From an uncultured Nitrospiraceae bacterium (GTDB lineage: Bacteria > Nitrospirota > Nitrospiria > Nitrospirales > UBA8639), in the NCBI GenBank assembly GCA_964503895.1, contig CAZDCF010000005.1, positions 16,972-80,971 of the forward strand: a stretch of 64,000 nucleotides of DNA, given 5' to 3'. Under the pieces are notes generated by a model, which was not told the DNA's origin, searched no databases, and worked only from the letters and a program-made list of their open reading frames with translations. This document shows, in pieces, positions 55,063 to 61,410 of the stretch (its first letter is position 1; the number at the start of each line of letters is the position of its first letter). The translations under genes were made by a program, and so were the position numbers.

Positions 55063-55767
55063 ATGACAGCAAACAAAAAAATGGTCCCTTATTCCACCCT
55101 TACCCTAAATATTACGATAGCCCTGCTCCTGACTTTTAATTCTACAGCCATCGCCTCCCCTAAAAGCCCAGCGACACATATCCGACACCAGTCCGTCCCA
55201 ATCCTTGGCGTAACATTCGACAAAACGAAGCGCCCCTTGGGTATAGTGATGTACGCCATGATTCATTTCCAAAAACGAGCAGACCATGATGGACTTAAAG
55301 TACATTTTCGAAAAGTCCTAGGACGATTCGGCCCCATTGCTCGAAAAGCAGTAGCAACATCTATAGGCCTGGCTGCCAAAGTATCGAAACTAAAGGATGA
55401 TTCCTGGACGGTGATCCTAGAATTTCCTTATGCTGGCTTGACAATGTATGGGGCCAGTTTATCCGCAATGATAGCCCTTTCCGTTATTGCACTCGCTAAG
55501 GATGATGCTGTGAAATATGGCCGGACACTTACTGGAACAATTTTAAAGAATGGCCGCATAGGAACAGTTACAGGCATTCCCTATAAAGTCTATGCTGCTC
55601 ACGCAGCAGGCCTTGAACAAGTTCTCATTCCCGAAGAATACCACCCGCTTGATGGAGAATGGCGACTCCCCTTTCTTATGCATATCTCACATGTTGGAAC
55701 TCTCGAGAAAGCCTACCAACGCTTAACAGACCAACCATTATTTCCAAAACATTCCTTAAGGCAATGA
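55063..55767 (+). CDS. Exported stand-alone Lon-type (S16) protease domain
   Basis: Signal peptide; GAS*LS with Lys exactly 43 residues later (IPYK), TGTI..NGRIG, AAHAAGLEQVLIP. Confidence 0.75.
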   Translation: MTANKKMVPYSTLTLNITIALLLTFNSTAIASPKSPATHIRHQSVPILGVTFDKTKRPLGIVMYAMIHFQKRADHDGLKVHFRKVLGRFGPIARKAVATSIGLAAKVSKLKDDSWTVILEFPYAGLTMYGASLSAMIALSVIALAKDDAVKYGRTLTGTILKNGRIGTVTGIPYKVYAAHAAGLEQVLIPEEYHPLDGEWRLPFLMHISHVGTLEKAYQRLTDQPLFPKHSLRQ

Positions 55768-55988: not shown

Positions 55989-58832
55989 ATGAGCCCCCTA
56001 CTAAAAATAGTCCTGTTTCCTGCAATCCTTGGTGGCCTTATGGCGATGACGCCATGGTATCCCGCTTGGGAAAACACCTTCTATGACAAACGCATGACAT
56101 GGTTTGTAGAGGAGCATCCACGAGCCCAAGAAATTCTGTTGATAGGCATGCAGCGATCACCCCGAGAGTATATATGCGGGAATTATTCAAATCGTGGCCA
56201 GGCCACGACGGACAAAGCTCTGGCTGTTACACTTGAATCGCTAGATAAACTATCCCCCAAAGCTGTGGCTTTAGCGTTTCGTCTCCCGAACTGTGAAGCT
56301 CTCAAGCATCTGGGAGCCAAACTGGCACCCTTGAGAAATCAGGGCATTCCGCTTGTATTAATACCACCTAAAACGTCGGCTGTCACTGAAAGTAATGTCC
56401 CCCGTACCTTGCTCCTCCAAGATTTGTATTTAGAAGAGGATCCCAACTGGTATCGTGTTCAGTCTGGCGATACCTTATCAATGATTGCTTATCGATTTCA
56501 TACCACCGTGCGGACTCTCAAAAGCCTAAACAATTTGTCAGATGACAAGATTGCATACGGACAACGACTGCTGATTAGCCAAAAAGAAAAGGAGTCCGTC
56601 TCGCATCTCCCTACTACATCATTAACCGCAATCGGTACGCTTGAGATCAAAGCACAGGATACGGAGGATGGAATCTTACGAGCTTTAGATTTAGGATCTC
56701 GCATTCCCCCGATCGGAGTCCTCTTAGCTGACTTGCTCAACTTAGAGCAAACAGCTCCATTTGATCCTTTCCCAAAAATACAACCCACCGTTCAGAAGAA
56801 TAAAACCTGGCGCATTACCTATAGTGAGTCTTGGTATGCAGACCCGAAACCGTTTCACTACCAGTCCCTCGATCATTTTTCTGTTTTGGACAATCGAGCA
56901 ACAAAAGCTCTCATCAACGACAAAATCGTCATTCTTTTTGACGCAACAGAGGAATCTACGGTCAGGACCCCACGCGGTGAACTTGTCCCACGTGCTTATA
57001 TTCATGCCCAAGTACTACTCAATCGCCTGACGGGCATGACAATTGTCACATCTTCTTGGTGGCAAACTGTGTGCCTGATTCTTCTAGGCAGTAGTGCCAT
57101 GGCAAGCCTCTATCATATTTCGTCCTATCGACGACGGAGTAATTCTAATCCAATCATCATCTGGCTATATCCAGTCGGCTGGACTCTCTTTCTATTCCTA
57201 ATCTTAGGCATAGGCCAGTATCTCGCTTTTTTCATGACTCAATATATGATTGAGGTTATTCCTCCCCTTGTCGCCACTGGAATTGCTGCGTTTGGAGTTA
57301 CCATCCTCACATGGCATCAGTCCTTTGCTCGCTTGGCTTCACGGATGGAAGATATGCAATCGGAGCGAGATGTCATGCTGGATGAACGAGCACGATTACT
57401 TGAGACAGCAGAAGAAAATACAGAAGAAATCTTGAAAATGGATCGCCAGCTGAATGAACAAAACGCTGCTATATTGCTTTTAGAAGGTGACCTGAAACAG
57501 CAGAAAGACTTTCAGCGTCAATACCTGCCGCATAAGGTTCCCCTGAAGCCCCCTAAAGACGAGAGCTGGCTTGAGTTAGAGCAAGAAGCGAAAGGCTTCG
57601 ACATCGTGACTCGGGACAGAACAATGTTGCAGGCCTTCCATGCGCTCAAAGAGTTATCCCAAAATCCTGAGCGACCCATCTTTATTTCTGGAGACACAGG
57701 AACGGGAAAAGAGCTGTATGCAAAGGCTTCGCATCACTTGAGTGATCGTCCGAACGGTCCATTTAAAACCATTAATATGGGAGAACTTACTGGAGAGAAA
57801 CTCCTGTCGCGACTGTTTGGAACTGCAAAGGGTGCATTCACCGGCGTTCATGGTAGTGAAGGACTCTTTCAGCAAGCTCATCGCGGCACCTTATTCCTCG
57901 ATGAAATCGCCAATCTTAATAGGGAAGGACAAGGTCAAATCTTACGGGTACTAGAGGATGGGTGCTTTACACCACTGGGTGGGAAAACATCAATAAGAAC
58001 CGATGTACGTCTAATTTTTGCCACAAATAAAAATCTCAAAAAAGAGTGGGGAGAAGGACGATTCATGGAAGATCTGTATCACCGCGTAATGAGTGGGGGA
58101 ATCATTAGACTGATCCCACTGCAGAAGCGCGCCAAGGAAGACCGCCAACTGATAACAGACCATCTCCTTCGCAAAAATACTCGTCGCGATTCTATCCCTC
58201 GACTAACAGAAGAAGCCCTAGAATGGATTTTTGAACAGCCTTGGCCTGGAAATGTCCGTGAGTTAGACGGCGTTTTGTACCGGAGCCTTACGAACCATCC
58301 AGAAGTACCAACAATCCAACGAGAACATTTAGTGCAAGCTGTTGATACTGAAAGTCCCCTGTTACCAGATGAGCCTATGAGACAAGACTCAAGCCCGCTT
58401 CTGTCTCCAGAAGTGGTTGACCCACTTACCACGCAGTTGTCTGATGAAGAGTTCATGGGAAAATTCTGCGGCTTTCAAGGAGCTATTGGGCAGTTAGCCG
58501 CCGAGCTAGGTCAACACCGGGATCGCGTCACGCTAAGGGTCAAGGGATTGGCATTTGAGGCTATATGTCAGGGCGGGAGCCCTCCTAACTATGAGGAGTG
58601 TTGTGAGCGGATACTCCGAGGCCATGCTCTTTCTCGTCTCCCCAAGCGAAAACTAGAGAAGAAATTGAGGGGATATTGGGACACACTTGTAAGAACTTGT
58701 CAGGACTGCCCTTCACCTGACGAAGCGATAGCTTCTATCTTTAAGCAAAATGAAAATATGCTGACCCGCAAACACTATCTGCGCGACCTTGAGCCCTTCA
58801 TCAAGCAACACTACTCCTCCCTGAACCGGTAA
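55989..58832 (+). CDS. Membrane-bound sigma54-dependent activator: CHASE2 with inserted LysM, 3 TM, coiled coil, AAA+ domain, HTH-like tail
   Basis: LysM YRVQSGDTLSMIAYRFHTTVRTLKSLNNL..DKI..GQRL; CHASE2-like DGILR and KIV...TP.G...HAQ; GDTGTGKE, GAFTGV, LFLDEI, WPGNVREL. Confidence 0.88.
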   Translation: MSPLLKIVLFPAILGGLMAMTPWYPAWENTFYDKRMTWFVEEHPRAQEILLIGMQRSPREYICGNYSNRGQATTDKALAVTLESLDKLSPKAVALAFRLPNCEALKHLGAKLAPLRNQGIPLVLIPPKTSAVTESNVPRTLLLQDLYLEEDPNWYRVQSGDTLSMIAYRFHTTVRTLKSLNNLSDDKIAYGQRLLISQKEKESVSHLPTTSLTAIGTLEIKAQDTEDGILRALDLGSRIPPIGVLLADLLNLEQTAPFDPFPKIQPTVQKNKTWRITYSESWYADPKPFHYQSLDHFSVLDNRATKALINDKIVILFDATEESTVRTPRGELVPRAYIHAQVLLNRLTGMTIVTSSWWQTVCLILLGSSAMASLYHISSYRRRSNSNPIIIWLYPVGWTLFLFLILGIGQYLAFFMTQYMIEVIPPLVATGIAAFGVTILTWHQSFARLASRMEDMQSERDVMLDERARLLETAEENTEEILKMDRQLNEQNAAILLLEGDLKQQKDFQRQYLPHKVPLKPPKDESWLELEQEAKGFDIVTRDRTMLQAFHALKELSQNPERPIFISGDTGTGKELYAKASHHLSDRPNGPFKTINMGELTGEKLLSRLFGTAKGAFTGVHGSEGLFQQAHRGTLFLDEIANLNREGQGQILRVLEDGCFTPLGGKTSIRTDVRLIFATNKNLKKEWGEGRFMEDLYHRVMSGGIIRLIPLQKRAKEDRQLITDHLLRKNTRRDSIPRLTEEALEWIFEQPWPGNVRELDGVLYRSLTNHPEVPTIQREHLVQAVDTESPLLPDEPMRQDSSPLLSPEVVDPLTTQLSDEEFMGKFCGFQGAIGQLAAELGQHRDRVTLRVKGLAFEAICQGGSPPNYEECCERILRGHALSRLPKRKLEKKLRGYWDTLVRTCQDCPSPDEAIASIFKQNENMLTRKHYLRDLEPFIKQHYSSLNR

Positions 58833-58873
58833 CATCTTTTTCAGTAAGCCGGTCTTTTGCATTCTCATCTGTG

Positions 58874-58936
58874 TGCCGTGACTTGTCGGTAATCATGCTG
58901 TGACCTGCACGAGCTCACGGCATGATTGCCGTGAGC
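58874..58936. promoter_or_regulatory. Enhancer-like (UAS) palindromic sites
   Basis: Perfect GCTCACGGCA-TGAT-TGCCGTGAGC at 58913-58936; inverted 16/20 copy at 58884-58903; half-site TGCCGTGA at 58874-58881. Confidence 0.65.
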
Positions 58937-59052
58937 CATGATCTAGTCCTGCATCATGCTTCATTCTGAAAAATCTTTCTAATCTCTCAATAACATTAGA
59001 AATTTTTATCTTCTTTTCCCATTGCACCCCCAAAGTATGCCCACTGTTTGAA

Positions 59053-59070
59053 CTGGCATAGAAATAGCAA
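59053..59070 (+). promoter_or_regulatory. sigma54 (-24/-12) promoter
   Basis: CTGGCATAGAAATAGCAA: GG(59055-56)-N10-GC(59067-68), about 130 bp downstream of the palindrome. Confidence 0.7.
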
Positions 59071-59136
59071 CTTTATCTACAGGACAAGAGAACGATCGTG
59101 ACTTTTTGCGTACACACAAACGAAAGGAGATCCATC

Positions 59137-59436
59137 ATGTCACTGAATTTAAAAACCACTCCCCGCAAGCTAGTAACGTCAAAAATTCAAAAAGGGAGTC
59201 ATTTCCTGTTATGGCCTGACCGGACACGATCGGAATTGGAGCGCCTCTGCATTACAACTAAAGAAGTTGCACCAATTCCACCTCGGTGGCGACGTATTAA
59301 TCCTGCTCAATATCTCAAGGAACGACCCAGTAACGTTTGTATTCTCGCTGCTTCTGGACAAAAGCCCCCACTGATTATCCAACTCGTACCCGCAACGCAG
59401 CGGTTTAGTGACGTAACCCCAAATGCCGTACCGTAA
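59137..59436 (+). CDS. Small basic hypothetical protein (99 aa)
   Basis: ORF track 59098..59436; AAGGAG SD before ATG 59137; first ORF after the sigma54 promoter. Confidence 0.55.
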   Translation: MSLNLKTTPRKLVTSKIQKGSHFLLWPDRTRSELERLCITTKEVAPIPPRWRRINPAQYLKERPSNVCILAASGQKPPLIIQLVPATQRFSDVTPNAVP

Positions 59437-59505
59437 CATCTCCTTAAAAGGTCATAACGCACGATGAGTAGAACTTTGCCATTCTTCCTTAAAAGGAGAT
59501 TTACC

Positions 59506-60420
59506 ATGCGGTATAGAGCCATTCACAACGAACTTTTCAAGCAACTAGAAAACCAAGATTCCAAGGTCCGAGCCGCCGCAGCCTATAGTTTGGGAAAAAT
59601 GAAAGTGCGACGAGGAATTAAACATCTGGCGCGTGCGCTGCAGGATCACATCCCTGAGGTGCGTTACCATGCAGTTTGGGCATTGGGGGTGATCAGGGAC
59701 CCGAAAGCCTTTGCCTATCTCAAGATTGCCAAACTGGATAATGATTCGGAAGTGCAGTGCGCAATCCAGCAAGCCTTGTACCGACTTGCCCTACCCTCGA
59801 CAGATTCACTGATTGACATGCTTGCCAATCACCCAAATCCTCAGAAACGTTCACAGGCTGCAAAGTCATTAGGCACCCTTTGCGAGTCACAAGCCCTGGA
59901 GGCACTGGTCCGTGCACTGAAAGATCCCTCGCTGCGGGTCAAATTTGAATCGATTCGGGCCATTGGATACTTACATTTCAACGGAGATCCCAATTTACTC
60001 AAAAAGATTATTACTTCATTGAATGATGAAAATCCAGTCCTGCGCCGGCACATTGTAGTGGCAATCCGACACCTACTGACATACGGCATACCTATACATG
60101 AGCAGAATATTATTAGGCCCCCTCTAACGTCAGCGTCGTCTGCTCCTCAATTGCAAGCCTGCACTGAGATAACAACGACACATCAAGACTTAGAGATGCG
60201 TTATGCGGTTAAAAGGTTATTCAATTGTCTACGAAACGATCCAGACCCATTGATACGAGTTGAAGCTGCCAGGACCTTAGGACATCTGCTGGGTAACTCC
60301 ACGGCACCAGAACCTAGATGGAATGAATCTCGTCATAAGGCACCTATCAGTTCTAGCGATAGCATAGGCAGAAACACTCCCCTTGTTGTCTTGAAGGGAG
60401 GGGTAACAGGGGCTTTCTGA
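59506..60420 (+). CDS. HEAT (PBS lyase-type) repeat protein
   Basis: ORF track 59464..60420; AAGGAG SD before ATG 59506; VRAAAAYSLG, VRYHAVWALG, IRVEAARTLG repeats. Confidence 0.85.
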   Translation: MRYRAIHNELFKQLENQDSKVRAAAAYSLGKMKVRRGIKHLARALQDHIPEVRYHAVWALGVIRDPKAFAYLKIAKLDNDSEVQCAIQQALYRLALPSTDSLIDMLANHPNPQKRSQAAKSLGTLCESQALEALVRALKDPSLRVKFESIRAIGYLHFNGDPNLLKKIITSLNDENPVLRRHIVVAIRHLLTYGIPIHEQNIIRPPLTSASSAPQLQACTEITTTHQDLEMRYAVKRLFNCLRNDPDPLIRVEAARTLGHLLGNSTAPEPRWNESRHKAPISSSDSIGRNTPLVVLKGGVTGAF

Positions 60421-60522: not shown

Positions 60523-61410
60523 ATGAACCACAAAAACTACTTAATAACTGGCATTGCTATTTTTTTCGTACTGGTGATGGGAGGAGCTGGGATTACCTAC
60601 ATTTTTCTTACCCATCAACCAGCAGTTGCAACAAAACCACTTACAAAAATTCAACACCCACGTAAGAGTAACCAGTCTCCAGAGAAGATTCCCACTCCGG
60701 CTCATGCTCACGACACTACAAAAGATTCCTCAAGACATTCTCCGGACCTGGTAGAGAAAGTCGAGACGGAATCTGGAGCATCTCTTGTACATGCCTCAAC
60801 CATTTATGTGGAACCATCGACTACGCCAAACGTTACAAAGCAGGCTTTCGAGGTCGAAAAGAGAAAAGAAGAAAAATTAACCTTAGTTGACCTACAGTTT
60901 GGTTTAAGTCGAACGGGATTGAAAACCCAGACCAAGACCACCCTTGATGCTTATGCGAAAAGACTGCGGGACCCGCAATGGAGTGTACTGATTGAAGGAC
61001 ATACGGATGAGACTGGATCAATCCGGAAAAATCTGCATGTTGGATTACGACGCGCCAACGCGGTTAGGCAATATCTGATCACGAAGGGAATTTCCAAAGA
61101 CCGTCTGCATGCCGTAAGCCTTGGGGAATATCAGCCAGTATGCATGGATACAACTCCAGCGTGCCAGTTACAGAACCGTCGCGTGAGTTTTGCCTTAGCA
61201 CGACGGGAAGGCATTGAAAAACAAAACTCGGTTCCAGTGCCACAGGAGCCGGTAACACTTTCTAAAAAAAGCGCGATATCAATTGAACTGGTAAATCTCC
61301 CTGAAATCCACAAGAGCACGATTGATACCCCGGGTAAAGTAAACCTGATATATCCTGACCCTGTTCATAATACTCCACCTCCCTCTATACCAGTTGAGGG
61401 TGACAACTGA
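60523..61410 (+). CDS. Inner-membrane-anchored OmpA-like peptidoglycan-binding protein
   Basis: N-terminal TM; IEGHTDETG..N..GLRRANAVRQYL..G...LGEYQP...NRRV. Confidence 0.88.
   Translation: MNHKNYLITGIAIFFVLVMGGAGITYIFLTHQPAVATKPLTKIQHPRKSNQSPEKIPTPAHAHDTTKDSSRHSPDLVEKVETESGASLVHASTIYVEPSTTPNVTKQAFEVEKRKEEKLTLVDLQFGLSRTGLKTQTKTTLDAYAKRLRDPQWSVLIEGHTDETGSIRKNLHVGLRRANAVRQYLITKGISKDRLHAVSLGEYQPVCMDTTPACQLQNRRVSFALARREGIEKQNSVPVPQEPVTLSKKSAISIELVNLPEIHKSTIDTPGKVNLIYPDPVHNTPPPSIPVEGDN

Follow-up and report, generated by a model that had tools for sequence, protein, structure and literature searches.

Positions 58874–59069 of the window, the 64,000-nucleotide stretch of contig analyzed here, probably constitute the enhancer–promoter module of a one-operon sigma-54 circuit. 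The module lies in the 305-bp intergenic region between the end of an activator gene (58832) and the start of the next gene (59137), in the genome of a marine Nitrospirales MAG (1.84 Mb, 92.6% complete). The reading is well supported and the layout textbook-style: The DNA elements are present, conserved across orthologous loci, constrained in spacing and helical phase, and found together with the adjacent activator in a genome that carries rpoN. From these sequence features we infer which protein would bind, that transcription would depend on sigma-54 and on DNA looping, and where it would start (Table 1).

Table 1. Features of the activator gene, the intergenic module, and the downstream operon, in window coordinates
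Feature	Position	Strand	Sequence or size	Relative to predicted TSS	Remark
Activator gene	55989–58832	+	947 aa		
Extra upstream half-site	58874–58881	+	TGCCGTGA	centre near −202	
Distal UAS palindrome	58884–58903		TGTCGGTA-ATCA-TGCTGTGA (TGTCGGTAATCATGCTGTGA)	centre ~−186.5	
Proximal UAS, perfect 10-4-10 palindrome	58913–58936		GCTCACGGCA-TGAT-TGCCGTGAGC	centre ~−155.5	
8-4-8 core of proximal UAS	58915–58934		TCACGGCA-TGAT-TGCCGTGA		
AT-rich spacer	58937–59053		117 bp, 36% GC		
Mid-spacer conserved block	58975–58993		TC.T.CTAA...C..A..AA	~−105 to −87	invariant columns in alignment A5
Sigma-54 type −24/−12 promoter	59054–59069	+	TGGCAT-AGAAA-TAGCA (TGGCATAGAAATAGCA)		predicted TSS ~59080
Shine–Dalgarno of first target gene	59124–59129	+	AAGGAG		AAGGAGA kept in orthologues
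First target gene	59137–59436	+	conserved basic 99-aa protein		downstream in all orthologous loci
HEAT-repeat protein gene	59464–60420	+			in some lineages only
OmpA/Pal-like peptidoglycan-binding protein gene	60523–61410	+			conserved last gene of operon

Every component of the layout that the original prediction had read from the DNA is present. The perfect 10-4-10 palindrome, the third half-site, and the AT-rich spacer stand as described, and the spacer core (58961–59020) falls to 25% GC against a genome GC of 45.5%. The second palindrome is the inverted copy it was taken for: When reverse-complemented, the distal 20-mer agrees with the proximal one at 16 of 20 positions, and it starts 31 bp upstream. 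The GG-N10-GC motif placed about 130 bp downstream has its GG at 59055–59056, 130.5 bp from the palindrome centre, and its GC at 59067–59068, with a separation of exactly N10.

The elements differ in how much weight each can bear. Across the 1.84-Mb genome, the half-site octamer occurs 59 times, and at least two copies fall within 100 bp only at the present locus; the 8-4-8 palindrome, allowing zero or one mismatch, occurs once. The promoter pattern TGGCAY-N5-TNGCW has 19 genome occurrences on both strands, with ~0.002 expected in a 305-bp intergenic strand. Two other counts would suit a layout that arose by coincidence and regulates nothing: GG-N10-GC by itself is found 11621 times, and perfect 10-bp-arm hairpins are fairly common, with 89 genome matches (nested ones included, mostly terminator-like) versus ~10 in shuffles. 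Because a perfect hairpin alone is not rare, significance rests on the half-site cluster and on conservation, not on the palindrome itself. The genome has no second such cluster; 10 distinct loci agree in sequence, spacing, and synteny; and a search starting from the motif yields activator/small-gene contexts only (see below), so that coincidence is a vanishingly improbable account.

Activator orthologues, 54–70% identical, were found in related Nitrospirales genomes and in metagenomes, and the same module lies downstream in each; these loci represent related lineages, not independent samples. In alignment A5, which spans the ~300-bp intergenic region of seven complete loci at a mean column identity of 74%, the only invariant runs of at least five columns are CACGGCAT, TTGCCGTG, and TGGCA. 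The first two belong to the proximal UAS and are invariant in all orthologous loci. The distal UAS is degenerate in the present lineage and reads (T/G)GACGGCA-N4-TGCCGTG(A/G) in most orthologues, and GCCGTG stands at the alignment position of the upstream half-site in 6/8 aligned loci. The promoter retains GG-N10-GC in 10/10 distinct loci, as (T/C)GGCA(T/C)-N5-T(A/G)GC(A/G).

Spacing is as constrained as sequence across the 10 distinct loci and one further locus, L038, a second copy of the L022 lineage. In every locus two 8-4-8 palindromes stand in tandem, 31–32 bp apart, and the −12 GC lies 66–71 bp from the start codon. The proximal centre and the GG are 129.5–131.5 bp apart in nine loci and 141.5–142.5 bp in two (L038 counted), with a spacer of 118–120 bp or one about a helical turn longer (130–131 bp); the 10–12 bp indel is placed between the UAS and the mid-spacer conserved block. 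A length change of about one helical turn is expected if activator and polymerase must face each other. The palindromes therefore occupy the position of a UAS, ~80–200 bp upstream of a −24/−12 promoter, with spacing in two classes about one turn apart. In the G006 lineage, ~400 bp of unrelated DNA separate the activator stop codon from the module, which is intact; the functional unit thus starts just upstream of the first half-site, independent of the end of the activator gene. The insert itself (L003:4348–4740; also in L026, L032, L035, and L036) contains tandem GTTGAAGTCCCCCCTTTGGAA repeats and a CCCCCTTTGGAAAAGGGGG hairpin, with a terminator-like GGCGCGTCCGCGCC-TTTTATT just upstream of the UAS sites, and may be a small mobile or REP-like element.

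The palindromes lie 40–105 nt past the activator stop codon, and they might instead work as RNA, forming hairpins that terminate or stabilize the activator mRNA at its 3′ end, rather than as protein-binding DNA. RNA from 58826 to 58975 folds at −51.9 kcal/mol (z = −3.9), and one flanking arm position shows three Watson–Crick pairs and a G–U among orthologues. Two copies of one palindrome would, however, be expected to fold strongly in any case, and the pattern of conservation is that of DNA: The 7+7 core is sequence-invariant with no compensatory change although its flanks have diverged; the distal site carries a G–G nonpair in seven of eight loci and A–G in the eighth, with pairing in none; one half-site sequence is used in both sites; and promoter spacing is conserved and phased. 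The terminator version was rejected on three counts. Neither hairpin is followed by a T-tract, the proximal palindrome continuing into CATGATCTAGTCC, and a terminator scan found nothing, and hence no Rho-independent terminator, at 58884–58945; the invariant core lacks compensation; and the G006 lineage has its separate TTTTATT hairpin just upstream of the sites. One RNA-library contig (58793–59023) crosses the palindromes, a weak indication in the same direction. A role as RNA hairpins is accordingly very unlikely.

On the promoter side, GG and GC are invariant in the 10 distinct loci, and the −12 element is off-consensus: It reads TAGCA or TGGCA, not TTGCA, an A or G replacing the second T. 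No plus-strand sigma-70-like site was detected in 58600–59300, and an Rfam scan of the same interval returned no match. The genome encodes rpoN (PF04552, 189.8 bits) as a 513-aa open frame on contig C14. In metatranscriptome X18, contigs from 90–99% similar strains cover 59134–60339 and 61183 onward, with depth highest over the small gene, whereas zero contigs cover 57500–59107; as the RNA-library contigs are unstranded, of low depth, and open to DNA carry-over, this coverage is consistent with, and not decisive for, a transcript start between the promoter and 59134. One X18 contig, of depth 16, links 59393 directly to 59464, with 70 nt missing and CA inserted; in a related strain, it seems, the small gene has a shorter end and lies closer to the HEAT gene.

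The block of invariant columns midway along the spacer is a candidate for binding by an architectural protein, for example IHF. nifH and Pu are IHF-assisted sigma-54 promoters. The present module resembles that class in its AT-rich spacer, its conserved block midway, the two HU/IHF-family genes in the genome, and its whole-turn length variation; it departs from it in that the block is a weak match to the E. coli IHF consensus WATCAANNNNTTR: Four of seven loci match it on the minus strand, at a common offset, with 1–2 mismatches. IHF-assisted sigma-54 promoters are discussed in PMC2709558.

The gene just upstream encodes a protein ordered as a TM helix, a periplasmic CHASE2 domain with an inserted LysM, three TM helices, a coiled-coil linker, AAA+, lid, and a C-terminal domain; the four TM helices (1+3) are predicted from hydrophobic segments. 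Its sigma-54 interaction AAA+ domain (PF00158, 160.8 bits), followed by the AAA lid, carries Walker A GDTGTGKE, Walker B LFLDEI, and the L1 loop GAFTGV (57831–57848). In orthologues (P0004, P0013, and P0005–P0012) the loop reads GAYTGV, GGWTGV, or GGFTG(I/V), so that the aromatic residue and Thr are always kept and the final Ala of GAFTGA never is. The protein is thus a bEBP by its AAA+ domain, Walker motifs, and GAFTGA-type loop, with a noncanonical form of that loop. A literature search returned no report of a CHASE2-linked or membrane-bound bEBP, and none tying CHASE2 to sigma-54 activators. Directly upstream of the activator gene, in this lineage and in L022/L023 and not in L024/L025, lies a gene for a Lon_C (S16) protease-like 234-aa protein (55063–55767), which might process the membrane activator in the lineages that have it.

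The ~150 C-terminal residues gave zero Pfam matches, HTH_8 included, when residues 780–947 were searched at a cutoff as loose as E = 10. A model of the C-terminal 148 residues (pLDDT 87) has eight helices, and the first three (model residues 20–29, 34–41, and 45–62) are predicted to form an HTH, a divergent Fis/NtrC-like version with the sequence LGQHRDRVTLRVKGL. Profile searches matched the DNA-binding domains of Aquifex NtrC4 (3E7L, 4FTH), NtrC (1NTC), and NtrX (5M7N), all in one register and each sub-significant (E 0.13–1.4). Fold searches with the domain were unconvincing, the best scores being a Foldseek E of 0.67 and a VIA Z of 5.3; the similarities were local and HTH-like only, for instance to the HTH of Tn3 resolvase (46 residues at rmsd 2.0). 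All full-length orthologues examined share one recognition helix, HRDRVxLRVKGL; paralogues have different ones (CDRGTVRERLRGL and similar), and their loci lack the motif. Four cysteines of this domain (C827, C860, C872, and C904; 58467–58700) are identical in the 63%-identical G006 orthologue, mostly missing in paralogues, and partly missing in distant orthologues; they might together bind a metal there or serve as a redox site.

Co-occurrence links this protein to the palindromes. The exact core CACGGCA-N4-TGCCGTG is present in all orthologous loci and in 0/18 paralogous long bEBP loci, and simple-pattern searches of the 600 bp downstream of those 18 paralogous genes revealed no obvious common palindrome-plus-promoter layout. 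Among 41 related genomes, the exact core occurs in the three that have the orthologue and additionally in G009 and G032. The latter two matches were set aside as unrelated, the first as a chance match in apparent coding sequence and the second because its copies recur every 72–75 bp, like a CRISPR array: The G032 locus (L030, G032:C2:78825–82201) holds 45 copies of CACGGCATCGCTGCCGTG at that interval, a CRISPR-like repeat that contains the UAS core. Conversely, when JGI metagenomes were scanned with H3 plus the proximal palindrome as query, without protein information, the site was, in all four contigs retrieved (4/4), preceded by the 3′ end of the activator and followed by the small gene with OmpA or HEAT.

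The adjacent activator is therefore the most likely binder of the palindromes, an assignment that joins strict co-occurrence with an HTH from a confident model and sub-significant NtrC-family profile matches. bEBPs without DNA-binding domains do exist, FlgR and CtcC among them, and Pfam misses such a domain here; the promoter could thus be a real sigma-54 promoter at which another protein recognizes the palindromes and the adjacent activator acts without site-specific binding, from solution or from the membrane. That other protein might be one of three further true bEBPs, of the four that the genome encodes with the adjacent activator included, or the small basic product of the first gene acting in feedback. 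The latter is assigned no function by family searches (no Pfam or NCBIfam match; ESM Atlas matches uninformative, with a best score of 0.80 to unnamed clusters). This account is unlikely: The motif tracks activator orthologues strictly, in genomes and metagenomes, and is missing at paralogue loci; the activator has a confident three-helix HTH in the customary place at its C-terminus, and the recognition helix does not vary; and two sites on one helical face, at −155 and −187, suit an activator rather than a repressor.

The original prediction had further proposed that the palindrome is the cognate site of the activator and would define its regulon. Footprinting across loci, spacing and phasing, and strict co-occurrence uphold the first part, a bEBP UAS; the second fails in that the motif defines no wide regulon. 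A genome scan for the site, of the kind that had been suggested as a check, covered the present genome (G000, 93% complete), G006 (4.6 Mb), and G041 (2.1 Mb), the latter two listed as single-chromosome assemblies, and found in these three genomes no site with at most one mismatch away from the present promoter. Sites with two mismatches were rejected as a wider regulon: In G006 they belong to a repeated element, one on C9 overlaps a stop codon, and the others are isolated. With good sites at one promoter only, the predicted regulon is one operon. One-operon regulons are common for one-component EBPs (PMC4641369). Within this operon, the C-terminus of the small protein varies among orthologues (57–141 aa). 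Elsewhere in G000, two TGGCAT-N5-TTGCT promoter-like sites (C33:5666–6464, minus strand) lie just downstream of a bEBP gene (C33:6877–7596, minus strand), and the gene order of activator followed by sigma-54 promoter may recur in this genome.

In the mechanism that we favor, the CHASE2/LysM membrane bEBP would bind as dimers, through its C-terminal Fis/NtrC-like HTH, to two dyad sites of consensus TCACGGCA-N4-TGCCGTGA, centred at ~−155 and ~−187, three helical turns apart on one DNA face; the flanking half-site may help nucleate the AAA+ hexamer. The AT-rich spacer would loop, possibly with IHF or HU bound at its central block, and so bring the L1 (GAFTGV) loops of the activator to sigma-54 holoenzyme at TGGCAT-N5-TAGCA. 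ATP hydrolysis would then open the promoter, transcription would start near 59080, and the transcript would continue through the three operon genes (small basic, HEAT, and OmpA-like).

The one unusual point of the system is that the activator is an integral membrane protein. Given four predicted TM helices, a membrane-embedded hexamer has to reach chromosomal DNA, which counts against the enhancer–promoter reading. At slightly less than even chances, the activator stays in the inner membrane while working, with the DNA drawn there and the sigma-54 open complex formed there. Such a protein would follow a ToxR/CadC-like one-component design driven by an AAA+ hexamer, and the ~130/~141 bp spacer and its central block would reflect the geometry of a tethered loop. 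Alternatively, the cytoplasmic AAA+–HTH part might be freed by proteolysis.

The NtrC site is TGCACC-N5-GGTGCA, whereas the half-sites here form TCACGGCA-N4-TGCCGTGA. The arrangement as a whole is close to that of NtrC at glnAp2, with two dyad sites about three helical turns apart (~−187 and ~−155 here) upstream of a GG-N10-GC promoter and further weaker sites nearby; NtrC acts there on sigma-54 holoenzyme by looping, as is proposed here. At E. coli glnAp2 the NtrC sites lie at −140 and −108 (PMC5159524), so that the present sites are some 15–45 bp farther upstream. In contrast to NtrC, the activator is a membrane protein, with four TM helices and a periplasmic CHASE2/LysM sensor, and not a response regulator; past the HTH, its DNA-binding domain is extended by ~85 aa, and its predicted regulon is the single adjacent operon. 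For Desulfovibrio vulgaris, single-operon bEBP regulons have been reconstructed by comparative genomics (PMC4641369). Those systems share with the present one a one-component EBP beside its target operon, natural GAFTGA variants, and a site deduced from conserved palindromes upstream of −24/−12 promoters; the present system differs in belonging to Nitrospirota, in its motif, and in its membrane-embedded activator with a CHASE2/LysM sensor.

Together, these comparisons provide a precise cis-element for an uncharacterized family of membrane-embedded sigma-54 activators in uncultured marine Nitrospirales: a site of consensus (T/C)CACGGCAT-NN-TTGCCGTG(A/G), present as two copies 31–32 bp apart, with the promoter ~130 or 141 bp downstream. 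The circuit is predicted to control the adjacent operon only, comprising the small protein, an optional HEAT protein, and an OmpA-like wall-binding protein. Sigma-54 has been proposed to be linked to the cell exterior (PMC3162934), and the predicted OmpA-like target fits that proposal. The natural length variants of one helical turn offer a ready-made loop-phasing test. The mechanism would be textbook; the module is of value for annotation and as a defined piece of DNA with which to ask how an AAA+ activator anchored in the membrane gets to its enhancer.
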